From positions 8,618,001 to 8,682,000 of the forward strand of contig JBHGNT010000021.1 in assembly GCA_043228905.1 (NCBI GenBank): a DNA stretch of 64,000 bases. Direction: 5' to 3'. Numbering within the stretch: position 1 is the stretch's first letter; the number at the start of each line of letters is the position of its first letter. Positions 1,920-31,897 of the stretch are shown here, piece by piece. Below the pieces are notes generated by a model. It was not told where the DNA came from. It did not search any database and was given only the letters and a program-made list of their open reading frames with translations. The stretch is from Azolla caroliniana. Lineage: Eukaryota; Plantae; Polypodiophyta. The position numbers were made by a program, and so were the translations under genes.

Positions 1920-2408
1920 AAAACCCTAAATGGGAAAAACCACGGGAGTCCTCCAACTCCAACTATCACTATACACAGAGATGTACAATGGTGAAGCTAC
2001 AAGGCAACAACCTTGAGCTCACTGCCTTCGCCACAGGCGGCGGTATTACTCCGAGGCGTCGACCTCTTCCTTTCTCTCTCTCTCTCTCTCTCTCGGCTGC
2101 TCTCACTTTGCTCTCTCTGCTGAAAACAAAAAAAATGAGCAACAACAATAAAACTGTTTGCCCTAAGTCATATTTATACACATATGACTTTCGGGTTATT
2201 TACAAATATAGCCTCAAGGGCCCTTGGCAAACATATTCACAAATATGTCCCCGCATCCGGATCTCTCTCCGGGTACATTCGTCATCCGGCTCCGTAGCCG
2301 GGGTCTTCATCATCCGGCTCCGTAGCCGGGACCGTAACTGTAACCGTAACCGGGATTGCCGTTATTCATCTCCGGACATCCCATCCGGAGGGACCGAAAA
2401 TCCCAACA
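1920..2408 (-). repeat. C1 3' LTR, missing its outer 114 bp
   Basis: Matches 6638-7126 (offset 4718); PPT adjacent at 2409-2422 (GTGAAGGGGGAGTT on minus). Confidence 0.93.
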
Positions 2409-2418
2409 AACTCCCCCT

Positions 2419-5400
2419 TCACTTTGGCATGGGATGTCTCTCCAATCCGATCCTCTTCCGGCATGCTTCCAGCTTGTCAGGTGTAAGTACCTTGGTCAGC
2501 ATATCCGACCCGTTCTCGTCCGTGTGGATCTTCGTCAGCACGAACTCCTTGTCTTCTATCCTTTCCCGGATCCAGTGGTATCTACGTTGGATGTGCTTCG
2601 TCCGGGAGTGATAGGCCGCATTCTTCGCAAGGTGGATGGCACTCTGACTGTCGCAGTAGAGTCTGTACTCCTCCTGCCGGATACCGAGCTCTCTAATGAA
2701 GTCCTTCATCCATATCATTTCCTTGCCGGCTTCAACAGCCGCCATGTACTCCGCCTCCGTGGTTGACAATGCAACCGTCTTCTGCAGCCTCGACTGCCAC
2801 GAAACAGCTCCCCCTGCATACGTCATCACATACCCTGATGTGGACCGGCTGGTATCTGCATCAGCCGACATATCCGAATCGGTAAAGCCGTCGAGTTCGG
2901 GCTTACCGGAGCCGAATCGGAGGCACACGTTTGCCGTGCCCTTCAGGTATCGGAGTATCCACTTGACCGCGTTCCAGTGCTCTTTGCCGGGATTGCTCAT
3001 GTACCGGCTCACCACTCCGACTGCATATCCTATGTCCGGTCTTGTACACACCATTGCGTACATCAAGCTTCCGACGGCAGAGGCATATGGTACTTTCATC
3101 ATGTCCTCCTTCTCAGCCTTTGTCTTGGGGCTTTGCTTGCTGGACAGCTTGCAGTTTGCCGGGAGGGTTGACCCGACCGGTCTTGCTTCCGACATGTTGA
3201 ACCGGTGAAGCACCTTTGTCACGTACTTCTCCTGTGACAACCACAACTGCTTCTTCTTCCGGTCCCGGATGATATGCATCCCTAGTATTTGCCTCGCCGG
3301 ACCCAGGTCCTTCATTGAGAAGGTTCGGTGAAGCGCTTTCTTCAGCATCCGTATCTTGCCCTGGTCCCGTCCGACGATCAACATGTCGTCCACATACAGG
3401 AGGAGTATTAGAAAGTCTCCTCCTTCGAACTTCTTCACAAACACGCAGTGATCGGACTGCGTTTTGTGGTACCCTTCGTTGGTCATGAAAGAGTCGAACT
3501 TCCGGTACCATTGCCGGGGAGCCTGCTTCAGTCCGTAAAGGCTCTTCTTCAACCGGCATACCAGGTGCTCCTTCCCTTTCTTCTCGAATCCTTCCGGTTG
3601 CTGCATGTAGATCTCTTCTTCGAGGTCACCGTGAAGGAATGTCGTCTTCACGTCCATCTGTTCTACCTCGAGGTCCATGCTTGCCGCTATGCTCAGCACC
3701 GTCCGGATGGAGGTCATCTTCACTACCGGGGCAAATATCTCGTCGAAGTCGACGCCCTTCTTCTGCTGGAACCCCTTCACCACGATCCTGGCTTTGTATC
3801 TCGGGGGGTTTTCGACATCTCCCGGTTTCAGCTTGAACACCCACTTGTTTCGAAGTGCCCGCTTTCCTTTCGGCAACTCCACAAGTTCATATGTGTGGTT
3901 CTCATGCAAGGAATCCATCTCCTCCTGCATGGCACTTAACCACCTGCGGCTATGGGTGTCAAGCTTTGCTTCTTCAAGACTCTCCGGCTCCCCCTCGTCG
4001 GTTAGCAGCACGTGCTCTGGTTCCGGAAATCTCCGGGGGGCCCTTCTCTCTCTTAGAGGGTATCTCCGTTCCGGAGCTTCGGTAACCGGCTCCTCCGTTT
4101 CCTCTTCATCCGAATCCATTTCGGGATCGGGGCCGGTTCCGGTATCAGTTTTATCTTCCTCGGCCGGTTCTGTTTCTCCACCGTCTTCGGCCGGATCCTC
4201 GAGTGCTAACCGGTCCCTTGCCGGTCGGGACTGCTCTTCGTAGAGTTGATCCTCACCGGTCGACTTGGAGCTCTTCATCTTCTTCTCCGACTCCCAGTCG
4301 GCGAGTGTCTTGTCCTCCATGAAGATGATATCTCGACTCCTGAATATCTTCTTGTCGACCGGGTCCCATACTCGGTAGCCGAACTCGTCGTCACCGTAAC
4401 CGAGGAATATGCATGGCCGGGTCTTTGGATCTAACTTTCCTCTCCGGTCCTTTGCCACATGCACGTATGCGAGACACCCGAACACCTTCAGATGCCGGTA
4501 GGATACTTCCCTACCGGTCCACACTCTCTGCGGCGTGTCTCCGTCCAAAGGTACTGAGGGTGATCTGTTTATCATGTATGTCGCCGTCGACATTGCCTCA
4601 GCCCAAAACCCCTTGGGTAATTTCGCATGCGCCAGCATACTCCGGACCCTCTCCATTATGGTCCGGTTCATCCTCTCGGCCAGCCCGTTCAGTTCCGGCG
4701 TCTTCGGCACAGTAAACTCGAGCCGGATTCCCTTCGAGCGACAGTACTCTGCGAACTGCCCCCGGTATTCCCCTCCGTTATCCGCTCGTATCGCTTTCAG
4801 CTTCTTACCGGATTCTCTTTCCACTCTCGCGTGGAGTTCTTTGAAGACGGACAATACTTGGTCCTTTGTCTTCAACGGTGCCGTCCACAGCTTCCGGCTA
4901 TGGTCATCTATGAATGTTACGAAGTACTGGGCTCCGCCATGTGACTTCGTTTCTACCTGACACACATCAGTGTGTACCAACTCCAATGGTACATTACGTC
5001 TCGTCGGTGGCCTTGAGTGGAAGGAGGTTCGGTTCTGTTTACCGGCCAGGCAATCGGTGCACTTCTCCAGGTGCACATGCTTCACTGGAATAAGGTTGTC
5101 TTCTGCAAGCCTCTTCATCCCCTTCTCGCTCATGTGACACAGTCTCTTGTGCCACAGCTCACCGGCAGTATCGGCTGCCACGTTCAGCTCCTCCGGACAT
5201 AGCCAGGAATTCATCAGGTACAGTGTATTGACCTTCCGGGCCCGAGCCACTATCAGGCTCCCTTTGCTGAACTTCATGACACCGTTCCGGATGCTACCCG
5301 TGTAGCCTACATCATCTAGCCTCCCGGCCGAGATCAGGTTCAATCGGACCTCCGGAACGTGTCGAACATCCTTCAGCAGCATCTTGCATCCGGTTGATGT

Positions 5401-6492
5401 CATCAGCCACACATCTCCTATGCCGGCAATCCGGCATGTGCCTTCATTTCCCATCCGGACACAGCCGTGCTCACCGGCTGTGTAGGATGAGAAGTATTTC
5501 TTCTCCGGGGTCAGGTGGAACGACGCTCCGGAATCGACCACCCAGGTCATCTCTACACCGGCAAGGTTCAGCTCCCTCTCTTCGGTAATGAGCATTATCT
5601 CTTCTTCACTTGCCGCGAGTGCCGTCGTTCCTTTCCGGTCCTGCCCTCGCTGATCCGGACCTCTCCGGTCCGTGGCTCCCCGGTATGCACCGTTTCTCTC
5701 CGGTGACTTCTTCGAATCGGTGTCGTCGGCTCCGTTGTCCTTTCGGTAATGCCGACAATTCTTCCGGAAGTGCCCCGGCTTCCCACAGTGGAAGCATGTG
5801 GGCCTTCCTCTTGACTGCGACCGGGTCCCCGACTTCTCCCGTCTTTGCGGACTCCGGTTCCATTGTCTTCCCCGATCCGATTCGGTAAGCAGCATCTTCG
5901 GATCGGAAACCGGTTCTTTATCTCTCCGACGCGCTTCTTCGTTCAAAATGCTTGTCTTTACCGTTTGTAGAGACAAGTTATCTTCGGTGCAGGAGGTGCT
6001 GAGAGTCACCACCAAGTTCTCCCAGCTTTCCGGCAATGTACACATCAGAATGATGGCTTGCATTGCATCCTCCAACGGGAACTTGATCGCCGCAAGCTGG
6101 TTCACGAATCCCATGAACGTGCTCACGTGTTCCACCATATTCTCGCCGTCCCGGTACTTGAGGTTCACTATCTTCCTCATCAGGGAGGTCCGGTTCAACG
6201 CATTCTTCCTCTCGTAGAGGCCCGACAGCTTCTTCCACATCTCATATGCGTTGGTGTCGTTCGCCACATGTTGTAGAACGCTTACATCGACATATTGCCG
6301 GATCGTCGCTACGGCTTTCCGGTTCAGGAGCTTCCACTCCGACTCGATTACCCCCTTGGGTATCTCGGCATTGTCGATCGGTTCATACAGGTCTCGGACG
6401 ATGAGAAGGTCTTCCATCTTTATCTTCCAGTCGGCGTAGTTCTGTGAGTTCAACACCATCATGCCCGGAGGCCCACTACCGCCGCCTTCCAT
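2419..6492 (-). CDS. Copia Gag-Pol polyprotein (gag, zinc knuckle, PR, INT, RT, RNase H)
   Basis: CFHCGKPGHFRKNC; WVVDSGAS; LWHKRLCH...CTDC; HTD...RADNGGEY...NGLAER; [30 protein letters not shown]; FTDSD...SDMLTK. Confidence 0.97.
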   Translation of the reverse strand: MEGGGSGPPGMMVLNSQNYADWKIKMEDLLIVRDLYEPIDNAEIPKGVIESEWKLLNRKAVATIRQYVDVSVLQHVANDTNAYEMWKKLSGLYERKNALNRTSLMRKIVNLKYRDGENMVEHVSTFMGFVNQLAAIKFPLEDAMQAIILMCTLPESWENLVVTLSTSCTEDNLSLQTVKTSILNEEARRRDKEPVSDPKMLLTESDRGRQWNRSPQRREKSGTRSQSRGRPTCFHCGKPGHFRKNCRHYRKDNGADDTDSKKSPERNGAYRGATDRRGPDQRGQDRKGTTALAASEEEIMLITEERELNLAGVEMTWVVDSGASFHLTPEKKYFSSYTAGEHGCVRMGNEGTCRIAGIGDVWLMTSTGCKMLLKDVRHVPEVRLNLISAGRLDDVGYTGSIRNGVMKFSKGSLIVARARKVNTLYLMNSWLCPEELNVAADTAGELWHKRLCHMSEKGMKRLAEDNLIPVKHVHLEKCTDCLAGKQNRTSFHSRPPTRRNVPLELVHTDVCQVETKSHGGAQYFVTFIDDHSRKLWTAPLKTKDQVLSVFKELHARVERESGKKLKAIRADNGGEYRGQFAEYCRSKGIRLEFTVPKTPELNGLAERMNRTIMERVRSMLAHAKLPKGFWAEAMSTATYMINRSPSVPLDGDTPQRVWTGREVSYRHLKVFGCLAYVHVAKDRRGKLDPKTRPCIFLGYGDDEFGYRVWDPVDKKIFRSRDIIFMEDKTLADWESEKKMKSSKSTGEDQLYEEQSRPARDRLALEDPAEDGGETEPAEEDKTDTGTGPDPEMDSDEEETEEPVTEAPERRYPLRERRAPRRFPEPEHVLLTDEGEPESLEEAKLDTHSRRWLSAMQEEMDSLHENHTYELVELPKGKRALRNKWVFKLKPGDVENPPRYKARIVVKGFQQKKGVDFDEIFAPVVKMTSIRTVLSIAASMDLEVEQMDVKTTFLHGDLEEEIYMQQPEGFEKKGKEHLVCRLKKSLYGLKQAPRQWYRKFDSFMTNEGYHKTQSDHCVFVKKFEGGDFLILLLYVDDMLIVGRDQGKIRMLKKALHRTFSMKDLGPARQILGMHIIRDRKKKQLWLSQEKYVTKVLHRFNMSEARPVGSTLPANCKLSSKQSPKTKAEKEDMMKVPYASAVGSLMYAMVCTRPDIGYAVGVVSRYMSNPGKEHWNAVKWILRYLKGTANVCLRFGSGKPELDGFTDSDMSADADTSRSTSGYVMTYAGGAVSWQSRLQKTVALSTTEAEYMAAVEAGKEMIWMKDFIRELGIRQEEYRLYCDSQSAIHLAKNAAYHSRTKHIQRRYHWIRERIEDKEFVLTKIHTDENGSDMLTKVLTPDKLEACRKRIGLERHPMPK

Positions 6493-6508
6493 TTTCTGTG
6501 TTACCGTC

Positions 6509-6520
6509 GCTCTGATACCA
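6509..6520 (-). promoter_or_regulatory. Primer binding site, initiator tRNA-Met
   Basis: TGGTATCAGAGC 3 nt inside the 5' LTR. Confidence 0.95.
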
Positions 6521-6523
6521 AAT

Positions 6524-7126
6524 TGTTGAACAACAATGCTCGGCCACCACCAAGTAGTAGTATCGATTCACAGAAAACGGGAAATACAAAATGCACGAAG
6601 ACAATAGAGAGAAGAGTACACAGGATGTTTTACGTGGAAAACCCTAAATGGGAAAAACCACGGGAGTCCTCCAACTCCAACTATCACTATACACAGAGAT
6701 GTACAATGGTGAAGCTACAAGGCAACAACCTTGAGCTCACTGCCTTCGCCACAGGCGGCGGTATTACTCCGAGGCGTCGACCTCTTCCTTTCTCTCTCTC
6801 TCTCTCTCTCTCGGCTGCTCTCACTTTGCTCTCTCTGCTGAAAACAAAAAAAATGAGCAACAACAATAAAACTGTTTGCCCTAAGTCATATTTATACACA
6901 TATGACTTTCGGGTTATTTACAAATATAGCCTCAAGGGCCCTTGGCAAACATATTCACAAATATGTCCCCGCATCCGGATCTCTCTCCGGGTACATTCGT
7001 CATCCGGCTCCGTAGCCGGGGTCTTCATCATCCGGCTCCGTAGCCGGGACCGTAACTGTAACCGTAACCGGGATTGCCGTTATTCATCTCCGGACATCCC
7101 ATCCGGAGGGACCGAAAATCCCAACA
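6524..7126 (-). repeat. C1 5' LTR (603 bp, TG...CA)
   Basis: TGTTG/CAACA termini; TATAAATA on minus near 6890; duplicated at 1920-2408. Confidence 0.95.
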
Positions 7127-8316
7127 TGAACATCCTTTTATCGGAATATCATCCAAGAATGGCATCGTGATGTCCGGAATGCAATCCTTCAAGACTTTAT
7201 TCATGGCATTCACCATATGAGCCACCGAGTTCGTTGCGCCTTGGGGTAAGGTACACATCCGCACAAGCCCGATCGGAGTCCTCATGGTTGTAATGTCCCG
7301 ACTGTCGATCGCCAATTGGAATTGGTCATATCCGGAGTAGAGATCGCCAATGGAGTAGATGGACCGGCCCGCAAACGCTTTGGCAAATTCGTCCACGCTC
7401 GGACCGATTCCGGCATTTCAAATTGTCACCTTGTTGACGGGTTGAAGATCTTGGATGAATCGCAATGATCCATTCTTCTTCGGCACCGTGGACCACCTAT
7501 TGGAATAAGGAGCATTCGACGGTTCTAGAATTCCCATACTCACCTTCTCCTTTAAGAGCTCGATCAGCTTCGGAAGGTGTGCTCTCGGAACCGGTATCGG
7601 TTTCAAGTTCCAAGGCACATGAGGCACCGTGAAGATCACCATCGGCTCTATAACCTTTGGGTCAGCGCATCCGATTTCTCGTGGGAAGAATGTGAAAGCC
7701 TTCCCATGTCTCTCAAGCATATCGCGAAACATTCGGTCCTCTTCAGGGAGAAGGAAATTCTCCTTTCCAACTCGTAGCTTCCCCTTCGTCTCTTTGGTGA
7801 AGACATGACCTATCTTCTTCGGATCTCTTAAGCTTGGATTGTTAGCGACTTCCTTCATCTTTTGCCAGCTATCTTCCGGTAGCGGAACCGCAACTGGCTT
7901 GATCTTCTTATCCACTGTTTTATATTTCGTGTTGATGTCAGCTTCCTCCATCGAAATGCCACGACGGTATTCATCGATGATAGCGTACATGTTGATGGAG
8001 TTAACCGAAATCATGCATTGGTTGTGAAGATAGCTCAAGTCCACGACGTCCTCGATTTCGCCGATGGTGTCGTTAAATGAGGCTTCTTCCATAATATGAG
8101 TCACGAACTCCCCTTCTTCTATTATGTTCTCTTCTTTCAGCATCTTCTCGAATTCTTGTATCCGGTGCTTGTGCTTCTTGTCGGGTAGTACTAGTTTGCA
8201 TGCGCCACTAGGTGTGACACATGTTGCTTCTCCTTGCAATCCACGCACTCTTCTTTCTTGTGGGGTCTTGTGATTGCTCGGACTATTTGTGCCCCATGCT
8301 TCAATAGTCCGCTCTA
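7127..8316 (-). pseudogene. G1 pol 5' part (RT N-terminal half)
   Basis: ORFs 7418-8248 and 7028-7396 (KKNGSLRFIQDL, DLYSGYDQ, LPQG, FLDD), split by an in-frame TGA at 7418 where G2 has R. Confidence 0.9.
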
Positions 8317-10509
8317 AAAATCCGAGGATTCACCTCCGAGACTATCTCGATTCCTTTCATGATTGGCTCGCACCGTTAGGAATTGGACCGATCTTTGGTT
8401 GTCAAGACTCTTTATTCGTGCGAAGGCTGCTCCATTATCAAACACTCTGGTCTCCATCCGAGATGATGTGATATAAGGTTGCCCTAGGATGATAGGATGC
8501 GACGCCGATTCTTGTACGAAGAAGTGTTGATCCATCTCCACATCCCCGATCGTGACTTTGACATTGGGACAAGCTCCGTACAAGTCCTCCGTAGACTTTG
8601 TTGCCGCGCGAATCTTCCATCCGTGGTTTGTATTGATTGGCCATCTTCCCCTTTTGTAGAAGTCGATTGACATGAGGTTGATCTCCGAGCCGTGGTCGAT
8701 CAAGGCTACGACGGTCTCTTTCTTCTCCCCGATCTTCACCGGCGTCTCCGTTGTCGCTCGTGCCCAATGAGGTCGAGTGTAGTGGCTGTCCACCATATCT
8801 TCATCGATTTCGTCTCTTGCCATCGTTATGGCATTCGTTTTTGCTTTTTGCGGCTTCTCTTCTTCCTCGTCCGATTGTTGTCTCTTTCTCTTTACAAGGT
8901 CCACGATCGTGTCATGGAACTCCTTCTTCGTAATGCCAAGCAATTCCCTCAAGGACAAAGTTACGTGGCTATCAAGAACTCGTTCTTCGAGAATCTTCTT
9001 TAGGTCCGTCGTCTGCTCTATGTCCGACCTTAGCTTATAGGTAGGTATAGTCCTTGTCCTCCGAGTGGGGTCTTCGACACCAACCTTCACGGGCCGAACC
9101 GTTTCTTCAACTCGTATGCTTGGCTCCCCTTTTCGGCTTGATTCTCGTTCCTCCGTTTGTAAAGGTCGACTCGTCTCCGTATCGTCCTTCTTTTTCGCGT
9201 TCCTTGTTTCATGTCTTTTTGATGGGCCTTGCTCTTCTATTCTCTTTCTCTTTTCTTCGACGAACACCTCGTGGTTGTCGCACATCACCTCTGCGAGTAT
9301 GGTGTTGTCGTCCACCGGATCCGACCACCCGGTTATGCTTTGCACGTTTCGGTCCGCAAGCTCTACCTCGTTCGATGTGACTTTTCCCTTCTTCTCATAT
9401 TCGAGAACGGAAGTCCAAAACTTTGCTCCCGCTCTAGCAGCTTCAGTCTTGTCTTTCCCGACTCTTATTCCGGCCGACGCAGCATAGTGCATCGCATCCA
9501 CATGAGTCGCATCAGCATCCTCCATAGATTTCTTCATTCCTCCTCTTCCAAAATTCACCCGTAGGGGTCTTCTAGTCTCGCTTGAGCAGATCATGTTGTC
9601 CTCTATGTATACGATATTTTGTTGAATCGCCTCTCGAAGGCTCGCACAATCCCTTCTCATGTGGTCCATGCTATCGCACCACACGCATCTAAAGGGTTCT
9701 TTTCCTTTAGGGCCCCGACGATTCATGTTGGCTAGCGTGACCTTCTCGAACTTCTTCGCTAGCTCTTCGATGATGTCGTCATCAATCTTCTTTTCTTCCA
9801 CGTTACTTTGTCTCAGCGGCTCAGCTACTTTCGGCGGTCTTGCTTTCTCCGTGGTAGTCGGTCCCGTCATGTTGGTGTCATCAACCCATTGGCGACGCTT
9901 GTCGAGCCTATTGCATGCCCGCTTCACCGCGATCCAGTCCGCTACGAGCCCATTTGCTTGGGTATCATCTTCGAGAAGAGTCCCCAACTCCCGTCTATCC
10001 TTTATGTCCACGGCCTTCAAGAAGTACAAAGTCTTGTCCTCTTCAAGCAACACTTGGTCCGTATTGGGGAGACGACTAAACATCTGGTCGAATTCGTCGT
10101 ACACCCTCGAGACGCTCTTCTTATTCTTCTTCTCTATCCACTTCATCAGGGCATGTCGAGTCATCCTCTTTGAGTCTTCAGTCACGAACTCCGCTAGTAT
10201 CGTTTTCTCGAACTCGGTCCATGTTGTCTTACCTTCTTGAAGCTCGAGGACGCGTCTTTGGATGTTGTTGGCGACAACTCTCTTGAAGCTTGCGATTTGA
10301 CGTGCCTCGGACACGTCCCTCTGATTCATCTCCCTTCTATATGCATCAAGGAACTTCATAACGTTCCTTCCATCGAATTGGCCCTCGAGCTCTACGACAC
10401 GATCGACAACCTTCTCCACGCTCGCGTCGTTGTCCCGAGATCTCATCATTTGCTCGACGATTAGCATCATCCTTTCGAGCTCTCCTGCTTGGTTGCTTGA
10501 GGACGCCAT
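8314..10509 (-). CDS. G1 Gag-protease ORF
   Basis: About 730 aa; zinc knuckle CVWCDSMDHMRRDC; protease LIDHGSEIN...IILGQPY. Confidence 0.9.
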   Translation of the reverse strand: MASSSNQAGELERMMLIVEQMMRSRDNDASVEKVVDRVVELEGQFDGRNVMKFLDAYRREMNQRDVSEARQIASFKRVVANNIQRRVLELQEGKTTWTEFEKTILAEFVTEDSKRMTRHALMKWIEKKNKKSVSRVYDEFDQMFSRLPNTDQVLLEEDKTLYFLKAVDIKDRRELGTLLEDDTQANGLVADWIAVKRACNRLDKRRQWVDDTNMTGPTTTEKARPPKVAEPLRQSNVEEKKIDDDIIEELAKKFEKVTLANMNRRGPKGKEPFRCVWCDSMDHMRRDCASLREAIQQNIVYIEDNMICSSETRRPLRVNFGRGGMKKSMEDADATHVDAMHYAASAGIRVGKDKTEAARAGAKFWTSVLEYEKKGKVTSNEVELADRNVQSITGWSDPVDDNTILAEVMCDNHEVFVEEKRKRIEEQGPSKRHETRNAKKKDDTETSRPLQTEERESSRKGEPSIRVEETVRPVKVGVEDPTRRTRTIPTYKLRSDIEQTTDLKKILEERVLDSHVTLSLRELLGITKKEFHDTIVDLVKRKRQQSDEEEEKPQKAKTNAITMARDEIDEDMVDSHYTRPHWARATTETPVKIGEKKETVVALIDHGSEINLMSIDFYKRGRWPINTNHGWKIRAATKSTEDLYGACPNVKVTIGDVEMDQHFFVQESASHPIILGQPYITSSRMETRVFDNGAAFARIKSLDNQRSVQFLTVRANHERNRDSLGGESSDF

Positions 10510-10550
10510 CTCCAAGTATTAATCTCGACTTGATCCTTCCTACCACCTCT

Positions 10551-10568
10551 TTCACGTCGGGTTCACCA
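10551..10568 (-). promoter_or_regulatory. PBS complementary to the tRNA-Trp 3' end
   Basis: TGGTGAACCCGACGTGAA; identical 18-mer at 31876-31893 and 34118-34135. Confidence 0.88.
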
Positions 10569-10576
10569 CTTTATTA

Positions 10577-11642
10577 TGTCGTGAAGATCCGTCACTACGC
10601 GCGAATCGTGAGGCGGAACCGCCGGGGTTCTGGACCAGAAGGATTTAGAGTCGATACAAGCTTTGGCGAGAAAGTACTTAAGATAGATTGGGAAAGAGAG
10701 AAGTTGAGATTACACGATCAATTTGATAACGAATTTCTTCCTCTTAATTTTCATAAAAAAAACCGTGTTTTTTCTCCTCCCCCTTCCCTCTTTTATAGAT
10801 GCTCTCATGCACATGATGCATGTGAGGGTACAAGACATGCATAAATTGCATGTTTGCCATTTGGCGCTTATGTATTACATGTGGTGCATGATAACCATGT
10901 CACTCATTTTAGTTCTCATGTATGAAAATTTACATGTAAAAGTACAATGATAGAAATATAATTTCAACTAAATAGCATGGCTTAATAGTAAGCCATTTGA
11001 CTCCTAACTTGGAGGTGCATGGTTCGAATCCTTACTTGCCTTCCTTGTATATGTAAATATGTATATATATTTATATATTTATTTATCTAGTCGGCGTCCA
11101 TATTTATTTATCTAGTCGCCGGACGCCGCCGCCAGATACCGGTGCCTCGCCGGATATCGGTGCCGCCGCCGGATGCCGTCGGTTACCGGTGCCTTGCCCG
11201 ATGCCCTCGCCGGATTCCGTCGGATGCCGCCAGATCATCGGCTCCATCGCTGGTCCGGTTTTGGTTGGCCAAAACCCTTTACGAGTAGCTAGCCCACCTC
11301 CACTCTTAGTTCAAGTTACCTTGAACTCTCTATGCTCCACACATAAACACAAAGATAATATCTTTTGCTCCACCTTATATATGATGAGAGCTGTATTTGT
11401 CGTGCCTATGTGGGATATCTCATCATTTTCTCCTTTCCTTTTACAAACTTTATACCCTCATATCTTGACATTTAGTTGTCCGTTTCTCGTGTAATAAAGT
11501 GCATTCGAAACCTCCATCATTTTGTACTTAGATATTAAATCTATTTAAAATGTTATCTTTACAATTATTGTACTACGTGATTCATACTCGATTTCTTACG
11601 TTTTATAGGATTTTCACACTATTGCCGAAAATCTTCACGACA
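10577..11642 (-). repeat. G1 5' LTR (1066 bp)
   Basis: 12-bp perfect terminal inverted repeat TGTCGTGAAGAT...ATCTTCACGACA; TATAAAA on minus near 10795; next to PBS. Confidence 0.88.
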
Positions 11643-11654
11643 GCGGTGTTGCCA

Positions 11655-12595
<941 letters not shown>

Positions 12596-14929: not shown

Positions 14930-16746
14930 TCACATATATGATTTACTAAAGTTGTATGCGGTTAGCATATTCTTAAACCATAACGCAGAGAGCCTTGGAT
15001 ATCTATTGAACTCTTCATCAACATAAATTATTCCAAACTTTTCTGTTGATAAACCATAAACGGACTCAAAGCCATCAATAAGAGACCATATGTATAATCC
15101 CAAAACGTTTGACCCATTTCTGTATTATGAAGAAGAGAAAAAACCATTTATCGATAAATGTTAGGTCCATTTGTTAGATAAATGAGATAACATATGATAG
15201 AGGCATTACCTTATTCCGACAATCAAGGACTTCATGTATGATGAATAGAATCTTATACGATCTACATCATTAAGACTTGCATTAAATCCAAAACCTAAAA
15301 ACATAAAACAATCCACATGATTGATATTTAGATTAAACCAACCCAACAACTAAAAACATAAAACACGGCATTTTTTTCAATTATAAGTCTTCATTGTTAA
15401 GAATTATTTTAATGGTTATGTACTCACAAAGAATTTCATTTATTTGCCACACTTGTGAAATTAAGGTCTTATTTTTTGACATGCTATGTCTCTTAAGTAA
15501 TTCTGTCTATGCAAAGACAACTAGACATCAACTTAATATGACACACATTTCCAAAGAGTATTTCAATGGTTGTGATTCTTATCATGAGAAATAGGAAGTT
15601 GCCAAATACAACTTGATGCTTTTATGTATCATGACCTACATGCATCCAAGCACTTGAGTTCAACATCTAATTAATAAAAATTGGTGGCACACAATATATT
15701 TCGATTACAATGTAGACAACGAAAGGCCAATAATTACTATGCATAAGATTACATGTGAAGAGTTTTAGAAGTAGAAACTATTGACATTCCAAGAGAAAGC
15801 CCAAAACAAGAGCAATGATGACAACATGAATAGAGAGATAGATGACATTTCATGATTGTGCATAGTAAGAGTTTATTTTAGTCATATATCAAAGCATGAT
15901 AATTAAGCTATCGAATATGTTTACACCAACGTATGGATAATTGACGAGTATATTCATTGTAGCCCGTACCCCAACGCCCCATCTCACATTGATGAAAAGT
16001 ATGTGAGGTAAGTCATATAGAAGCAATGGTTTGTATGACAGACAACATGACTTGATATAGCATGTGTAGGGGATTTCTATTTTCCTCTTTTATAAATATT
16101 TTAATATGAATGGGAAGATGTGTGCACCTACATGCATGCATGTGAAGAGTGTATTTGATTTTTTACCTAATGATGTGATGTACGTGGGGAAGTTGTCATA
16201 ATGCTCCCTCACATAGGAAAGGCTTTTCTCAATGCACCATGGAACAGCATAATCTCCAGTGTACTCACCAATTGGAACGTTATCTTTATAAGCTGGATCA
16301 ACGAAGGCCATGCATGGTGTGAGTATATTGGACACGAAAACATTATGAGAAACTTATGAACTTGGGTCATTGATGACTAATAATATATATGCAGATAAAT
16401 ATATGTATATCACCAGTTCGTGTAATGTTCATGTCCTGCCAATATCCAGTGTTTGGAAGATAGTGATCGTCGTAGGTGCAATAGATGGCGCTGATAGAAT
16501 TCAAGCCAAGAAAGTCAATAGAGCCTCTCAAACGCTTGGACTCCTCTATCGTAAAATTTGGTAGACGTGATCCTAGCATTTCCCTCATTACTTGAGGGTA
16601 CTCCCCTCTAAGTAGAGGTTGTATAAACCATCCAGCTGTGAATTGCATGGCCCTCTCGGATGCCTCTAGGTCTGCCGTCGAATTGCTAAGTGGCTCATAC
16701 CACTTGAACCATATGACCATTCCAATATCACCATGTTGACTTCCCT

Positions 16747-16777
<31 letters not shown>

Positions 16778-17540
16778 TATCAAAGAGAGACAAGTATGAT
16801 GAAGATTGCTTGGACTAATACAATATTATTGTTCATAAGGTTGTCCAAACGTTTGCCATATTATTAATATAACATGTTTGTCCACCAATATAATGTTGTC
16901 ACTTCATATAGTTTCTAGTGAACATTAGCTTGACTTGATGCTTTTAGCTAGAGGTAGTGGCGACTCACTAGGTATTCGCGTCGATATAGTTCAACTGCCG
17001 ACGCATGTGCAAGGAGGACATGGTGTGCCGCAATGTAGGGTTCAGTAGCGGAGTCCCCGATAGTGCAATTAGATTTGAGGTCATAAGTGGGAATGCTACA
17101 CCTCCCAGGTGGGGCCGCCCTCCCGGCATACCCCCATGGCACGAAGTCATTCGCCTCGTCGAATGTCACCCAATGCTTCACTCGATCCCCAAATGCATCG
17201 AAGCATACGTTGGCATAGTACACGAAATCATCTCTAGCCCCAAATAAACACCCACAATTATATATGAGAATCATAAACAACCAAATCCATTTGGTGTTCT
17301 TTCTTGTCCTATATGCATGCATATGTATGTATGTATGTATGTATGTATGCATATGTATGTATGTATGTATGTATGTATGCATGCGCGGAGAGTTAAATTG
17401 ATTAGTTAACATGGATGGAGTGCAGGGGAAAAAGGTACGCACATGAATAAGGGACTCAATAATCCTCCATAGCTCTCTTCCAGACTCTGCGGCATATCTT
17501 GCTCGTACAATGTCACCATAGCTTCAATCCCTGACATACC

Positions 17541-17571
<31 letters not shown>

Positions 17572-18781
17572 GTAGTAAGTTAAGTATATATTTATTAACA
17601 TGAGGAGTATATTTATGCATTAGCCACAAATTATGTACCTGCATCGATGAGACTGTTGATTAGATCATTGTAAAAATCAATACCCGCTTGGTTAACATCA
17701 CCCCTACTCCCATCTGATCAACGGATTATATATACGCAACAAGTCAATTCTTCTGTCAGAAATCTGCTTGGTCGTGAGCTAAAATCGGGATTAAGGAGAA
17801 ATTGTGATGCCCATTGTGAAGTTGCTTACATTGAACAAAGTATTGTGTACTACAAATTATGAATATATGCTAATTACCAATCGGTTAATTACAGAAATGG
17901 TTGGATGGATGGAATTAATTACTTGGGAGAATTCGAGTCCATGCGATGGAGAATCTATAGCTATCCAAACCGAGGTCCGCCATTAATTGAATATCCTCCT
18001 ATAATTACATCACATTATATACCATGTATTATTAGATCCTTAATTCTGACATTGTATACTTCCCTTCAACGACAACAAATAAATAAATAAAATTACATGG
18101 TAGTGATGATATTGATCACCACCATCATTCGGAGTAGTGTTATCCTCTACTATTCCTGCACAGAGATGAAATTATGAGCTCAAGTTTACATGTAGAACTA
18201 ATCGAAACAGTATGTATATATATATGCATTACCAAAACCTTAAACCCTAAACCCTAATCACCAATAATAGTAAAAAGCTTAATGAGGAGTTAGTGAGAGA
18301 TGAATATATATATAAGAAGAAAATCAAGAGCACAAACCATCTTCTAGAGCAAAAGCATCCCAAGTGCTCACACTTTTACCATCAATGAAGGCAGCTCCTT
18401 CATGCTGTACAATATATTACACACAAATTTAGTTATGCGGGGTAAGCTTTACAAGATTAGAATCACAAGTTATGAAATCCATTAGAATACAAGCAATGTA
18501 TACAAAATGTAGAATTATAAATTTGCTTACACACACACACACACATATATATATACCTTAAATGCCCATGTGAGGGCACCGAACTTAAAATTGTCGGGAA
18601 AGGCTCTCCGGTCGATGTAAGTATCGTTGGGGAAGCTATCATAATCCTCATCAATAATAATGCCATTACTGCTAGGCGGGGCTTTTAATCCCCATGATTC
18701 TATTGTTAAGCATGAGCAAAGGAAGAAGAAGAAGAAGAAGAAGAAGAAGAAGGGCCATGGTAGTTGCTTAAGCAGAGCCAT
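14930..18781 (-). CDS. Secreted glycoside hydrolase family 1 (beta-glucosidase-like) protein with atypical active site; 11 exons: 18781-18557, 18404-18338, 18155-18097, 17998-17923, 17713-17639, 17530-17443, 17233-16969, 16744-16414, 16292-16167, 15294-15210, 15119-14930
   Basis: GT-AG introns join into a continuous frame: signal peptide, [14 protein letters not shown]...[80 protein letters not shown]. Confidence 0.88.
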
Positions 18782-25384: not shown

Positions 25385-26176
25385 TGTCGAGATATTACGC
25401 AAGTGCGTGTGGAAACGAGGCGGGACCGCGGGGGTCTCGAACCAAAGAGCAAGCGAGGGAGGAGAAAGAGAGAGAACCGGCTACGCAGGACCGGGGATAC
25501 ACAGGGACACGGCCCTTCAGCACGGATAACGCGAACAGACACCGACACAGACAGATGCGAATGATTAAATATGTATATTAACAAAAATGGCTAACACGAC
25601 TACAACCCTCGATGGGGCACAGGTTGGTTACAACCGAACAGGCCGGCGAACAGATGCCGATGCTTGTTCGCTTCGACGCACAAAGGGGTAGCAGGTCGGA
25701 GGTGCTGCCGGAAGCACTCGGGCGTTCCTCGAAACAGCGCGAGCCTCCTCGGGACCCTACACAGAAAGCTATGGAGCTCAAGAAGGAAGGAAACAGAGAG
25801 AGAAGCGTCCAGAAACGGTCCGACAGCACTTCGTCCTCTCTGCGCGAGATGCCTGCAACAGCTCTTTCCTGCTCCTTATATAGGCCGACGAGCAGGCCGT
25901 CATGTCAGCTTTATCCCCTGTCCCTTTCAAACAGGGATCCGCTCCGTTCTTCACGCATCCGCGTAGTTACGCCGCCGACTCGTACAGTTCCTTAGCTCGC
26001 GCGCGCGACCGAAAAGACTGTTCGCGCGGTCTTTGTCTCCACTTGTGTTAGGGCCCGTTCCTGCCGATTATCCTCCTAATTCGCTTCTATGTACAACTTG
26101 GAGCGTGCGCGCGTGAGGAACCGGTTCCCACGCCTTGGTGCGCCGATTCCGCTTATGGACGGTTTTCTTCACGACA
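25385..26176 (-). repeat. G2 3' LTR
   Basis: TGTCG...CGACA; direct repeat of 31898-32689. Confidence 0.96.
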
Positions 26177-26247
26177 TCCGCCCCCACCTAACTGCGCATC
26201 CTCCGGTATGCGCCAAGAGAGTTGGGACGGAGAAAACCGGCCCGTCT

Positions 26248-29200
26248 TCATTCCTCGCCCGTCGGTTCTTCCTCGTTTTCGGATCGTTCGTCACTGCTGA
26301 CTAGGAGAGCCGGGTCTGGCTCGTCGTCGTGTCGCTTCCTGAACGCTTTGATCCGCTTCCCTGCAACCGGTATCGCCATTCTCGTGCCGTCGAGTTCCGC
26401 CAGGTGATATGTCCCGTTGTCATTGGCGCTCCGTACCACGTAAGGCCCGAACCACCTTCGTGCGAACTTCCGTGTAGCTCGGTGCTGGTTGTCGAGGCTG
26501 CTGTCGTAGACGAGCACCCAGTCACCTTCTTCGATTTTCTTCGGTCGGAGCCGGTGCGTTCGGTCGAACCTGGCTTTGTTCTTTGTCCTCGCCACCCGGA
26601 GCTTCTCCGCAGCCAGTTCCACGTCCTCCGGTCTCCGCTCGAGCTGTCGTATACGCGCGGCCAACAACTCCTCCCGGCTCATCTCGTCCCTCCAGTCGAC
26701 CGTTGCCCACGAGGAGATCGTCCGTTCCATCGGCATGATCGGCTTCTGGCCGAACATGAGCTCCGTCGGCATGTACCCGGTTACCGAACTGTGCGTGGTC
26801 CGGTCTGCCCACAAAGCATAAGGTAGCAGCCGCGGCCAGTTACCGACTCGGCCTCCGCATGCCCGAACCAACGCCTTGACGATCGGCCCGTGTCCGCGCT
26901 CCACCTTTCCATTCGCCTCCGGATTGTACGCAGTGGTGAGCGAGAGCTTGACTCCCAGCCGGTCGAACAGCTCCGCGGCTTCTTCGGCGTCCAACTCCCC
27001 TCGGTCAGCCACGATCTTCCCAACGCACCCGTACCGGCATATCACGTCCTCGATTAGGAACCGACATACGGCCGCGGTCGTTTTGTTCGGAAGGGCCCGG
27101 CCTTCCACCTGGTTCGTCAGATCCTCCCGCGCTAGGACCAGGTACCGCATCTGTCCTACCCCCATTGGCATCGTCACCAGATCTACCATCCATTTGAAGT
27201 GGATGGTCGGAGGGTACGTAGGGTGAAGCTCGTCCCGGTGTCGGACCACGGAGTGCATCTGACAGCTCTCGCAAGTTGTCACGAATCGATGCACGTCCTG
27301 GTACAGTCCCGGCCACCAGTACTTCTCCTTTATCTTCTCGAACGTGGCCCAAGTTCCACGGTGTCCGGCCCAAGGGCTGTCGTGGTAGGCCGTCAGCAGC
27401 TCCTCCTGTTCTTCCTTCATCGCCACCACCTGGAGCGGAGCGCCGTCCCTCTTCTTCGGGTGCTTCCATAGATAGCCATCCCGGAGAAAGAACCGGTACG
27501 CTTTCTTCCGGATCCGGTTGGCCTCGTCTTTCGTCCATGACGCATCCGGCGCCATTGTCCTCAAGAACCCGCCGATCTGCAGCCACTCCCCGTCGTACTT
27601 GCTCGCGTCGAAGTCGTTAAGCGCCGGAGTGCTCGTCCCGTCGGTTGTTACGTATGCTGCCTCGAAGAAGTCCACGCCGACCTCTTCGTCCTCCGAAACC
27701 ATGCCGCCCTCGTCATCGAACCTCGCCCTCGAAAGCATGTCGGCCATGGCGTTGTCTTTCCCGGAAATGTGTCGTATTTCCGGGTCCAGGGACTTGATGT
27801 ACGCTATCCACCTGAGCATTGACAGGTCCGGCGTCGCGCATCCGGAAACCATGCCGAGAATCGGCATGCAATCCGTCTCTATGCTTACCTCTGTCCCGAT
27901 CAGATAGTCCTTGTCGGCCTTCACCGCCGAAACGATACCCCAGAGTTCGCGTTTAACCTGGGCGTATCCTCGCTGCCGCTCACTGAGGACCTTCGCGCCG
28001 AATCGGATCGGAAACCGATTGCCGTCCTCGTCTTCTTGGTTGACGACCCACCTGATTCCGGTCGGACTCGTGTCAACCGTTATGTACACTGGGGTGCCCT
28101 TCCTGTAGACGGCCTTTCGGAGCGCCGGTGCTGCCGAAAGAGCCTCCTTCAGCTTCCGGACCGACTCCGTGTGCTTGTCTAGCCATTCGAATCTTCGCCC
28201 TTTCTTCAATAATCCGTACAGCGGCTCCGCGACGTGCGCGTAATGCGGGATCCATATGTGGTAGAAGGCGCATGCTCCCAAGAATCTTCGTACTTCCGTG
28301 ACCGAGCTGCAATCAGGCTTCATCGCGGAGATGGCTTCTACCTTTGCCGGAGACGGTTTCCGGCCATATGGTCCACATAAATGTCCGACCACCATGATTT
28401 CCGACTGCCCGAAGGCTGACTTCTCCCCCGAGAAGGTGAGCCTCGCATTCTCTAGCCTTTGCAGCACCTTCTCGCAGTCGTCGATGTGCGTCATCACGAA
28501 TCGCCGGCATCCGTCCGGCCCGATCGTCTCGTCCTTCTCTTCTACCGGGCATCCCTTGATCGGGATGTCGTCTAGAAACGGCATGGTGATGTCCGGGATG
28601 CAGTCCCTCAGCACCTTGTTCATTGCATTCACCATGTGGGCCACCGAGTTGGTCCCTCCTTGCGGCAGCGTACACATCCGCACTAGGCCGAGGGGAGTTC
28701 GCATCGTCGTAATGTCTCTGCTCTCCACGGCTAGCTGGAACTGGTCGTACCCTGAGTATAGATCACCGACTGAGTAAATCGACCTTCCGGCGAAGGCCTC
28801 CGCGAACTCGTCTATGGTCGGTCCGATCCCTGCGTTCCGAATGGTCACTCTGTTGACCGGCTGCAGGTCCTGAATGAAGCGCAACGATCCGTTTTTCTTT
28901 GGTACGGTAAACCATCGGTTTGAATATGGGGCGCTCGACGGCTCGAGAATGCCCATATCAAATTTTTGCTTCAACAGCTCCATCAACTTCGGGATGTGAG
29001 CTCTCGGAACCGGAATTGGCTTGAGACTCCACGGTACATGCGGTACCGCGAATATCACCATTGGCTCTACGATCGTCGGGTCTACGCACCCGATTTCCTC
29101 CGGTGAGAATGCGAAGGCTTTCCCGTGCCTTCCGAGCATTCTCCGAAACCGGTCTTCCTCCACCGACAGTAGGAACCCGCCCCCACCGATCTTCAGCTCG

Positions 29201-29729
29201 CGGAGCGTCTCGTTGGTGAAGGTGTGTCCTATGCAGGCCGGATCTCGTAAGCTGGGGTCCGACGCAACCCCTTTGATTCGGGATTCGCTGCCCTCCGGTA
29301 AGGGCGCCGCAACTGGCCTCACCTTCCGGTCCACAGTCTTGTACTTGGTGCTAACTCGGGCCGTCCGTTCCGACTCGAGCCCTCGACCGAAGTCCGCGAT
29401 GACTTCGTACATTTCTTCGGAACACACCGGTATCGTCCGGTCTTCGTTAAGGTCTTCTTCGACTACCTTCCCCAGCATTCCCAAGGTGTCGTCGAAGGAG
29501 ACTGCCTCCACGGCTCCGTCGATTTCTTCGTCAGGGCCGAGAACTCCGCACGCCCGAAGTCTCCCCTCCGTCTTTGTTTTCTCTCGGCCGGCGATGCCGA
29601 CCATCGTACATGCTCCGCTGTCGGAGAAGCAAAATTTTCTACCTATTGTACACGGTTTTATCGTACAGATGTGGGGTTTTCCCGGAGCATCCGGACTGTC
29701 GCGGCCCCACGCCTTGGCAGTCCTCTCTA
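26248..29729 (-). CDS. G2 Pol (RT, RNase H, integrase); probably reached by -1 frameshift (first ATG at 29604)
   Basis: Uninterrupted frame: DLYSGYDQ, LPQG, FLDD, VDTS, H...H...CESC, ADRGEL, NGKVER, GPY motif; open back to the slippery site. Confidence 0.95.
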
Positions 29730-31853
29730 AAAATCCTCTCGGTTTTCGGAACCGAGGGAGTCGCGGTTACGTTCGTGGTTCGGCCGTACCGTCAGAAACT
29801 GGACCGAATGGCGCCCGTCTTGGCTTTTGACCCTCGCGTAGGCCGAACCATTGTCCAGCACCTTGGTCTCCATTCGTGCCGCCGTGATGTACGGCTCTCC
29901 CAGTATGACCGGATGCGAAGACGTCTCCTGCACGAAGAAGTGCTGGTCAATCTCGACGTCGCCGATCTTGACTCGCACATTCGGACAGGCCCCGTGCAGT
30001 TCCTCGGTGGCGCGCGTTGCTGCCCTTATTTTCCACCCGTGCTTGGTGTTGATCGGCCATTTGCCCTTCTTATAGAAGTCCATGGACATCAAATTGATCT
30101 CTGATCCGTGGTCCACCAAAGCTATCACCGGTTCCTGGACATCGCCGATCTTCACCGGGGTTTCCGTGGTCGCTCGGGCCCAGTGTGGTCTCGAATAGTG
30201 GCTTTCCGCCCACTCGTCTCCCAGCGCCATGTCGTCTAGGTGCGTCGTCCGCACTTCCACCGGTCTTTCCGGTTCTGTCTCCGTTGACAGCCTCTTCCGT
30301 TTCACCAAGTCCACGATGGAGTCGTGGAACTCCTTCTTGGCGATTCCCAGCACCTCTCGTAACGATAGCTCCACCTTGCTGTCGAGGATCCGTTCCTCCA
30401 GGACCTTTCGTAAGTCCGTGGTCCTTTCTATCTCCGTCCCCAGACGGTACCCGCCCTTCTGGGGTTTATCTTGCGTACTGGCCCCGCCGGCTTCGTCCCG
30501 TTGTGGCCCAGACCGGGTCTCGTATCGTTGTGAGGGCCCGATCGTCCCGGGTTTCCCCACCCGCTTCTCTTCTACCAGAGCCTCGTAGTTCTGGCAAGCG
30601 GCTTCCACGAAGCCCGTCTTTTCCTCGACCGGGTCGCTCCACCCGGTCATCTCCCGTACCCGTTTCTCCGCACGGTCCGATTCCTCCCTTTTAAGCCTTG
30701 CACCGGCAAGGCCTTCCAGCATCGTCGGCCAGAATCCGGCTTTGCTTTCCCTTCGGGCCTCGCCGCCCCCGACTCGAATGCCGGCTGACGCCGAGTAGTG
30801 GACGGTTTCCGCGTGTCGGGCCGCCGCCTCTTCCATCAACCTTTTCATACCACCTCGCCCGTCGTTTCGGCTCAGGGCCCTTCGGGTGTCGCTGGCATGC
30901 ACCCGTCCTTCCCACAGGTACACCACCCTGTTCCTCAACGCCTCCGCGAAGTCGCCGCAGTCCTTCCGAATGTGGCCGACTTCATCGCACCACATGCACC
31001 TGTTTCCTGCCGCCGGCCGTCGGTCACGAGCCGGTTCGCCACCTTCCCTTCGGGCTTGCGTGATTTGGAGGTCCTTTATCGCCCTCGTCAATTCCTCCAG
31101 CGCCGCTCCTCCGGTTGAGCCTCTGACTACGCCGGTCGAAGCCGAACCGGTTTCCAACCCCTCTCGGGTCTCTTCCTTTCGCACCTGTGGCGCTGGTTCG
31201 AGCTTCCTTGCTGCGACCGAGCCCGACCCGGTTGCCCCGTTATCCGCCCATTCTCGCCGTTTGTCGAAACGGCCACAGACTTTCTTGACAGCCGCCCAGT
31301 CGGTAGTGAGCCCGTCTTCGGTTTCCAGCAAGAGGCCCACTTGCTCCCGATCCCGCTCGTCGACCGACTTAACAAACAGCAAGACCCGGCTCGTGTCCAG
31401 GATGGTTCGGTCGAGCGCCGAAAGGCGCGCAAAGTTTTCCTCGAACTCCCGGAGGAGTGCCGACGCGTTTCTTCCCTTCCCCGGGGACTCCACCCATTCC
31501 ATGAACCTTCGCTTCGAAAGCCGGAGCGCGTCGTCCAGCCCGTATTTCTCTAGGAGCCGACCTTCGAACTCCTCCCAGGTACGGCTCTCCGCCCGCACCT
31601 CGAGCACCTCCGCATGGATGCTCGGCATCGCCACTCGGGGAAATCCGGCAAGACGCCTTTCTTCCGGAATGTCCCGCATCAGCATCTCTGCACCGTAGGA
31701 CGCCAAATACTTCGTGGCATCCTTCCCATCGAACTGGCCGATCGTGCCGACGACCGCCTCAATAGCTCTGTCGAGGGCACCGGTGCCCTCGCGCGCGTTT
31801 ACAATCCGATCCACGGCCGAAGCCATGGCCTCTGCAAGATCCGACCCCCTCAT
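29727..31853 (-). CDS. G2 Gag-protease
   Basis: 708 aa; CMWCDEVGHIRKDC; LVDHGSEIN...VILGEPY. Confidence 0.95.
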   Translation of the reverse strand: MRGSDLAEAMASAVDRIVNAREGTGALDRAIEAVVGTIGQFDGKDATKYLASYGAEMLMRDIPEERRLAGFPRVAMPSIHAEVLEVRAESRTWEEFEGRLLEKYGLDDALRLSKRRFMEWVESPGKGRNASALLREFEENFARLSALDRTILDTSRVLLFVKSVDERDREQVGLLLETEDGLTTDWAAVKKVCGRFDKRREWADNGATGSGSVAARKLEPAPQVRKEETREGLETGSASTGVVRGSTGGAALEELTRAIKDLQITQARREGGEPARDRRPAAGNRCMWCDEVGHIRKDCGDFAEALRNRVVYLWEGRVHASDTRRALSRNDGRGGMKRLMEEAAARHAETVHYSASAGIRVGGGEARRESKAGFWPTMLEGLAGARLKREESDRAEKRVREMTGWSDPVEEKTGFVEAACQNYEALVEEKRVGKPGTIGPSQRYETRSGPQRDEAGGASTQDKPQKGGYRLGTEIERTTDLRKVLEERILDSKVELSLREVLGIAKKEFHDSIVDLVKRKRLSTETEPERPVEVRTTHLDDMALGDEWAESHYSRPHWARATTETPVKIGDVQEPVIALVDHGSEINLMSMDFYKKGKWPINTKHGWKIRAATRATEELHGACPNVRVKIGDVEIDQHFFVQETSSHPVILGEPYITAARMETKVLDNGSAYARVKSQDGRHSVQFLTVRPNHERNRDSLGSENREDF

Positions 31854-31875
31854 CTTCTACTCTTCTGCCGCCTCC

Positions 31876-31893
31876 TTCACGTCGGGTTCACCA
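31876..31893 (-). promoter_or_regulatory. PBS (tRNA-Trp)
   Basis: TGGTGAACCCGACGTGAA 4 nt from the 5' LTR. Confidence 0.9.
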
Positions 31894-31897
31894 AAGA

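Follow-up and report, generated by a model that had tools for sequence, protein, structure and literature searches.

The window analysed here is a stretch of 64,000 nucleotides from the fern Azolla caroliniana (GenBank assembly GCA_043228905.1, contig JBHGNT010000021.1, positions 8,618,001 to 8,682,000; C21:8618001-8682000 in the 523-Mb assembly that was searched for related genes). Its minus strand carries a gene of glycoside hydrolase family 1 (GH1) that runs in 11 exons from the ATG at 18781 to the stop codon at 14930. The first-pass annotation of this DNA had described an intact spliced frame and this was borne out: all ten introns have GT-AG borders and the coding frame of 1587 nt encodes 528 amino acids with zero internal stops. 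By sequence and fold the product is a GH1 protein, yet it fails the defining tests of a retaining β-glucosidase. It represents a real and apparently undescribed fern GH1 subfamily of the pseudo-glycosidase kind. The exons are given below together with the joints found in contigs of the runs X1-X3 (three studies), which are presumed to be RNA and are not recorded as such.

18557..18781, minus strand: exon 1, with the start codon, the poly-Phe (TTC)n hydrophobic N-terminus and strand β1 ending at Lys75 (canonical Gln)
18338..18404, minus strand: exon 2, first residue His76 (clade-invariant); RNA-contig joint 18154-18337
18097..18155, minus strand: exon 3, with contig joints
17923..17998, minus strand: exon 4, with contig joints
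17639..17713, minus strand: exon 5, contig joint 17713-17923
17443..17530, minus strand: exon 6, Glu177 (17504-17502) replacing the O3-binding His
16969..17233, minus strand: exon 7, Asp222-Glu223 (17160-17155), acid/base Glu retained and the Asn before it now Asp; PF00232
16414..16744, minus strand: exon 8, two ancestral exons merged, Trp297 (16711-16709, clade-invariant) and Ile369 (16495-16493) in the place of the helper Tyr; PF00232
16167..16292, minus strand: exon 9, two ancestral exons merged, Ser436 (16173-16171) in the place of the nucleophile
15210..15294, minus strand: exon 10, contig joints 15292-16165 and 15119-15210
14930..15119, minus strand: exon 11, Glu484 retained (15067-15065), Ser485 replacing the O3-binding Trp, and the stop codon; PF00232

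Exons 7, 8 and 11 match PF00232 above its cut-off of 22.6 (59.8, 68.7 and 45.5 bits, respectively) and exon 1 alone gives no family match. The window protein itself seems to be absent from the protein collection, in which a word search with exon 8 found one unrelated insect GH1 among 42 candidates, and a 59%-identical relative, P0193 (382 bits to PF00232), was folded as its stand-in. The predicted structure of P0193 (predicted local distance difference test 80.1, predicted template modelling score 0.82) is a (β/α)8 barrel for which all matches listed by Foldseek are GH1 proteins, the best being rice BGlu1 (template modelling (TM) score 0.81/0.92); the ESM Atlas returned only generic plant GH1 clusters. 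The rice enzymes Os3BGlu6, Os3BGlu7/BGlu1, Os4BGlu12 and Os4BGlu18 share 40-42% identity with P0193 at TM-scores of 0.81-0.83 (query), and the canonical GH1 genes of the same genome have intron positions in common with the window gene. Two introns retained by its paralogues are absent from it, where exons of about 116 and 221 nt and of 29 and 97 nt correspond to single exons of 331 and 126 nt. This comparison used automatic paralogue models, one of which (L034) lacks the short 29-nt exon, and on these models exons 8 and 9 of the window gene reflect a lineage-specific double intron loss.

The protein has a hydrophobic N-terminus (hydropathy peak 2.65 at residue 11) and ten N-glycosylation sequons, and on these features it is likely secreted. 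No second hydrophobic or transmembrane segment was seen, the hydropathy after residue 40 peaking at 1.23. The hydrophobic core of the presumed signal peptide is itself a (TTC)n microsatellite (18722-18751), the Phe run counting 10, 9 and 7 residues across the three intact copies. In a Gln-type paralogue (L034, C19 near 8.57 Mb) a run of about 40 Asp lies between the hydrophobic N-terminus and the GH1 domain.

The six altered GH1 motifs of the first-pass annotation were all found in their places: AFK (Lys75, 18559-18557), LYEQD (17510-17496), TFDEA (17166-17152), NSI (16501-16493), ITSLG (16179-16165, Ser codon 16173-16171) and DGFES (15076-15062). In rice Os4BGlu18 the glucose site is formed by Gln46, His148, Asn193, Glu194 (acid/base), Tyr337, Glu408 (nucleophile), Glu464 and Trp465 (PMC7817009). 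The corresponding residues of the window protein are Lys75, Glu177, Asp222, Glu223, Ile369, Ser436, Glu484 and Ser485. This means that six of the eight glucose contacts, namely those of the Gln, His, Asn, Tyr, nucleophile Glu and O3 Trp, are replaced and two (Glu223 and Glu484) are retained. Among columns that are at least 90% conserved in 18 canonical GH1 rows, the canonical residue is kept at 104 of 119 non-pocket columns versus three of nine pocket columns (Fisher p = 6e-4), the latter comprising the eight positions taken from PMC7817009 and a ninth, the Trp of the WS motif; the three kept are this Trp, the acid/base Glu and the O4/O6 Glu. The earlier view that the changes are concentrated in the pocket of a conserved scaffold is thus supported.

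As regards the features of a retaining GH1 enzyme, strand 4 still ends in the acid/base Glu (Glu223), whereas strand 7 has lost the nucleophile Glu from its end (Ser436) and the helper Tyr is missing too (Ile369), and only one of the five glucose contacts Gln/His/Asn/Glu/Trp is kept (Glu484). Double displacement as performed by GH1 enzymes is impossible without the nucleophile Glu, and the window protein is almost certainly not a classical retaining glucosidase. An alternative exon 9 that would restore the ENG motif was looked for: no ENG-type motif occurs in any of the three minus-strand frames of intron 9 and tblastn revealed no extra exon there. The most informative change is one that the first-pass annotation had passed over, the clade-wide swap of Asn-Glu to Asp-Glu.

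Exon searches of the host genome revealed 17 GH1 loci with 14 full models, eight of them atypical and six canonical. When 1.84 billion representatives were searched for matches to exon 8, the best 150 of 2404 matches included four atypical proteins, three of them named Adiantum. Further searches with one atypical protein and with a 20-row profile, from which the best 120 of 940 and of 572 matches were listed, added more members of the clade. In a tree of 65 rows, from which four fragments under 380 amino acids were omitted, 46 rows including the eight genes of the host genome form one branch of length 0.9 with support 100/100. The same grouping was obtained in a tree of 42 rows with outgroups from lycophytes, gymnosperms and angiosperms, and a long branch of its own (0.79-0.9, 100/100) sets the fern clade apart from the other plant GH1s. 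The clade in seed-free plants for which a search had been proposed earlier does exist. Its species-named members are all ferns (two Adiantum species, Ceratopteris and Pteridium) and seven rows are Logan proteins; as the searches were word-limited, this restriction to ferns applies to the matches listed and absence elsewhere is not proven. Five lycophyte proteins that were checked are canonical. An apparent Gln-Leu-Gly nucleophile motif in the Selaginella protein P0312 was rejected, since its sequence has a normal SENG. Genes of the host genome fall inside each subfamily of the clade. This placement points to a fern as the host and to subfamilies that are older than its split from Adiantum, Ceratopteris and Pteridium.

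The subfamilies are only about 50% identical, yet they possess one fixed pocket. Lys75 is found in all 42 clade rows with a letter at this position, Glu223 in 46/46 and Glu484 in 45/45, Trp477 in all 46 and Trp297 in all of the 43 rows counted for conservation. Position 222 is acidic in 46/46 (44 Asp and two Glu, in P0180 and P0193) and the Asn-Asp that follows the acid/base motif occurs in every one of the 46 rows. The O3-binding His is present in none of them, nor is the helper Tyr, even in the nine rows that retain the nucleophile Glu. In ten columns, among them those of Lys75, His76, Asp222, Trp297 and Gly482, a residue that is rare in the 18 canonical rows reaches at least 90% in the clade. 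With isoforms included, 50 of 52 motif matches in clade proteins have Asp/Glu-Glu, versus 0 of 281 outside. A weaker common property is the acidic isoelectric point, which is 4.6 for the window protein and 4.5-4.75 for nine of nine clade relatives tested versus 5.4-8.6 in seven canonical proteins. A decayed copy on C4 (L044) that resembles the Gln subfamily has the motif Asn-Glu.

The nucleophile column behaves differently, with Gln in 28 of the 46 clade rows, Glu in nine, Ala in six and Ser in three. It requires six changes on the tree versus a minimum of three, and P0199 (Gln) is sister to P0186 (Glu). Together with two intact copies the window gene belongs to a ten-row subfamily (100/98), whose other seven full-length rows have Ala (six) or Gln (one). 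On this distribution Ser is a local state within an older Ala/Ser subfamily, its codon presumably a single base away from one for Ala. The nucleophile was lost long ago, and the pocket changes date from far earlier than the window copy. In other ferns orthologues of this subfamily carry adjoining gene numbers (P0183, P0195, P0273 and P0279 on Ceratopteris chromosome 12; P0011 and P0187 in Adiantum), which suggests tandem arrays.

The first-pass annotation had given weight to the Glu-to-Ser exchange as the classic glycosynthase change. Nucleophile mutants to Ala, Ser or Gly are indeed glycosynthases with glycosyl fluorides (PMC10591481), and structures of rice BGlu1 E386S and E386A exist. This emphasis is not supported, because the orthologues have Ala (6/7) or Gln and the donor site is rebuilt; as Ser is local within the Ala/Ser subfamily, the likeness to a glycosynthase is incidental. 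Engineered glycosynthases alter a single residue and keep the glucose site intact, whereas here six of eight contacts are altered, and most clade rows have Gln or Glu at this position. We know of no natural secreted donor for such an enzyme either, and a natural glycosynthase that moves glucose from an α-configured activated donor is barely credible.

The same Ser is present in a broken tandem copy within the window, whose ITSLG at 11746-11732 agrees with the first-pass annotation:

11725..12583, minus strand: broken tandem paralogue with the 3' part of exon 7, a frameshifted exon 8 and exon 9 with the same Ser

This copy has no 5' exons, and its exons 10-11 are located outside the window, about 2.4 kb ahead of position 1 and beyond about 12 kb of retroelement DNA in intron 9. 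Two intact copies with the same Ser are located on the same contig at C21 9.00 and 9.16 Mb (0.37 and 0.53 Mb away) and are 96% identical in protein to the window gene. Further fragments of the subfamily comprise partial copies of exon 1 upstream of the 9.00-Mb gene (L006:2119-2869) and an exon-7 fragment near 9.15 Mb (L045). The 5' half of the window gene (17233-18781) is nearly identical to L005/L006, with differences at two of 587 exon sites and one of 739 intron sites, and the 3' half is 3-4% diverged from them. Such a near-identical 5' half including the introns next to a diverged 3' half suggests recent gene conversion or recombination between the window gene and its paralogues. The ENA protein P0007 looks chimeric, combining the intact with the frameshifted type of copy, and with the 5' homogenisation it indicates, on sequence comparison, that recombination among the copies is ongoing.

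The window copy could be a redundant duplicate in early decay. The adjoining paralogue is broken, several exon 8 alleles of the window occur in no aligned RNA contig, Ser370 differs from the Thr found in 40/43 clade rows, and in the 3' half exons diverge more than introns (40/997 versus 42/1499 sites). On the other side, the frame is open with canonical splice sites, and the ratio of non-synonymous to synonymous differences (pN/pS) amounts to 0.38-0.40; the comparison with paralogue L005 counts 23.5 non-synonymous versus 18.5 synonymous differences and gives 0.38 (below 1, p = 0.004). Older paralogues have reached saturation at synonymous sites (pS 0.72-0.79), and dN/dS values are therefore given for none of them. 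Of the sites at which the window gene and the paralogue disagree, seven have the window residue closer to the subfamily and five that of the paralogue. X1 and X3 contain a spliced window-like contig, and the changes of the pocket are much older than this copy. The window gene thus has neither the broken frame or splice sites nor the neutral divergence of a pseudogene; the pN/pS ratio and the spliced transcripts agree with the earlier opinion that this is not decay. We consider decay very unlikely and are highly confident that function is maintained.

Contigs of X1-X3 join seven of the ten predicted introns at their predicted ends. An unbroken series of pieces from exon 10 to exon 1 is covered by one X2 contig of 1358 nt, which shows three differences over 16165-16290, with the Ser codon unaltered. 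A fourth run, X4, contributed no aligned contig, which counts neither for nor against expression. The contig shared by X1 and X3 is window-like in exon 9 (one difference, 16188-16292) and not identical in exon 8; a close relative of the broken copy is spliced in the same two runs. Of 40 differences listed for the contigs (14 further difference rows lie outside the listing) 33 are alleles of two paralogues elsewhere on the genomic contig. The subfamily is thus expressed and spliced, the exact haplotype of the window not being seen among these contigs. The splice model proposed earlier is confirmed insofar as these joints are concerned and the Ser codon was read unchanged, which supports the earlier claim that it is not a sequencing error; most of the contigs carry paralogue alleles. 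The joint 16290-16412 stems from paralogue alleles and represents the predicted 121-nt intron. A joint 15121-16164 was considered as skipping of exon 10 and rejected, its loose end at 16164 resembling exon 10 of a diverged second copy.

What such a pocket might do can be approached by comparison with known systems. In the KL2 domain of β-Klotho the acid/base Glu693 is retained, Ala889 occupies the nucleophile position and the pocket binds the tail of FGF21 (PMC10628560). Both proteins share the GH1 fold, the kept acid/base Glu, a small residue for the nucleophile, a likely extracellular location in the present case and perhaps the use of the pocket for binding, and by analogy the window protein would work most like KL2 without being a Klotho. 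Klotho is an animal membrane co-receptor with tandem KL1-KL2 domains and an anchor, whereas the window gene encodes a plant protein with a single domain in 528 amino acids and no second hydrophobic segment. Klotho also scores below plant GH1s and, since the window protein nests among plant GH1s, its nucleophile was lost independently.

A scaffold or decoy whose dead pocket binds a peptide or protein (a host signal, microbial inhibitor or effector) could be proposed from the KL2 pattern. Turnover of copies, a homogenised 5' half and a 3' half with several amino-acid changes would suit an interaction gene, and inactive GH28 proteins are known to matter in beetles (PMC6549527). Variable partners should, however, diversify the pocket, which is fixed here, and neither a transmembrane anchor (hydropathy after residue 40 at most 1.23) nor a partner was seen; we regard this possibility as rather improbable.

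The second relevant system is the archaeal GlmA of clan GH-A, in which the conserved Asn has given way to Asp178; this residue precedes the acid/base Glu179 and holds the C2 amine of glucosamine by its charge, the variant D178N being inactive (PMC6566704). The Asp222-Glu223 of the window protein is the same Asp-Glu in place of Asn-Glu. GlmA differs in being an active retaining enzyme of another family with its nucleophile Glu347 retained, whereas the window protein has Ser436 and matches PF00232 only, not GH35. Consecutive DE residues also define GH123-type catalysis, where the Asp stabilises the acetamido group and the Glu is the acid/base (PMC11087588), again in a TIM barrel without an enzymic nucleophile. 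These enzymes belong to another family and clan, and the fold search with P0193 returned GH1 in all listed rows. GH20 enzymes likewise possess a DE motif in a TIM barrel without an enzymic nucleophile and share these differences.

From the DE motif a substrate-assisted β-N-acetylhexosaminidase could be proposed, with the 2-acetamido oxygen as nucleophile and Ala, Ser or Gln giving room for it. The clade has its DE (Asp-Glu in 44 of 46 rows) at the acid/base position, and no enzymic nucleophile would be needed. The same Asp in GlmA would clash with an N-acetyl group, however, and chitobiose is not cut by GlmA (PMC6566704). In GH123-like enzymes Asp-to-Glu mutants have little to no activity (PMC11087588), yet P0180 and P0193 are Glu-Glu. 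Nine clade rows moreover keep the bulky Glu and 28 have Gln, which leaves this reading quite unlikely. Since Asp-to-Glu is tolerated in two rows, a charge role fits better than the exact DE geometry of GH123.

Our tentative preference, which we put somewhat below an even chance, is for a secreted non-catalytic binder of a small ligand that is held without turnover. The nucleophile column drifts and the Tyr is gone even from proteins with the Glu, which suggests that nucleophile catalysis was abandoned near the base of the clade. The fixation of new residues shows that the pocket still does something, and KL2 is a precedent for an acid/base Glu that serves in binding only (PMC10628560). The ligand would probably bear an amine, because the corresponding Asp binds the 2-amine of glucosamine in GlmA. 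Asp222 would pair with the protonated amine where O2 of glucose normally sits, Glu223 and Glu484 might hold hydroxyls of the ligand, and Trp477 and Trp297 could stack on it. The protein would act at the cell surface or in the apoplast as scavenger, decoy or sensor of microbial wall fragments. By analogy with GlmA, amino sugars such as glucosamine or oligomers of chitosan are the likeliest candidates for this ligand, though with all steps taken together an amino sugar is improbable.

Several observations weigh against this binder. An invariant acid/base Glu with an adjoining acid fits catalysis equally well, and the nine of 46 rows that retain the nucleophile Glu may be enzymes. All three O3 contacts (Gln, His and Trp) are altered, so the ligand may not be a hexopyranose, and these changes together with the invariant Lys misfit a plain glucosamine ring. 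Nor is a cation favoured by this Lys, which occupies the glycone site, or by the Lys/Arg that stands two positions behind Trp297. As GlmA is an enzyme of another family with a nucleophile, the argument from Asp is only an analogy. Finally, the window's own haplotype was not seen in the RNA contigs, in which paralogue alleles prevail.

A further alternative is other chemistry on a GH1 barrel without an enzymic nucleophile, i.e., an inverting hydrolase, transfer to an outside nucleophile (carboxylate or phosphate) or a non-glycosidase reaction that uses Lys75, Asp222 and Glu223. The invariance of Glu223, the newly fixed Lys75, His76, Asp222 and Trp297, the constant Asn-Asp after the motif and one pocket fixed over such divergent subfamilies resemble an active site. 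The nucleophile column, however, takes four states, there is no second conserved catalytic group and no candidate substrate, and sugar phosphates and nucleotide sugars are unlikely outside the cell. We judge such chemistry improbable.

The nearest canonical branch in the 42-row tree (92/86) comprises IHENG/IYENG-type GH1s of seed plants together with monolignol-type GH1s, and this sister relation is only a lead. The IHENG/IYENG-type group is presumably that of the rice Os9BGlu31 transglucosidase. Some of these proteins are also devoid of the O3 Trp (P0215, P0353 and P0060), whereas they retain Asn-Glu, His, Tyr and the nucleophile Glu. No description of the fern clade was found in the open literature searched (subscription journals and supplements were outside the search), and passages of the fern paper PMC13214078 mention only BGLU42. 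Looking up Ceratopteris gene identifiers in papers yielded only those of cotton and soybean.

Plant GH1s are almost invariably read as glucosidases and databases label several clade proteins "Beta-glucosidase". The present clade, with eight of the 14 full GH1 models of the host genome and four natural states of the nucleophile, offers a series on the way from retaining glycosidase to binder or new mechanism. It is a doubtful but appealing idea that an amino-sugar-directed GH1 family arose in ferns from a β-glucosidase via Asn-to-Asp next to the acid/base Glu and then dropped the nucleophile; this would be either the first plant binder of chitosan or glucosamine on a GH1 barrel or the first substrate-assisted enzyme of clan GH-A. 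If the ligand is an amino sugar, the clade would point to a fern-specific means to sense or disarm fungal wall fragments. Ceratopteris can be transformed and, as it carries orthologues (among them the Ala-type KP509_12G089500), the question is directly testable.

Positions 1-11300 of the window are occupied by nested long terminal repeat retrotransposons inside intron 9 of the broken copy, where a copia element, whose repeats at 1920 and 6638 are identical over the 300 nt compared, was inserted into a gypsy-like element that carries a DUF4100 gag-like frame. The gypsy-type elements at 25385-32197 and 56151-60951 are both young, their terminal repeats being 99% identical, and the latter has a chromodomain integrase.

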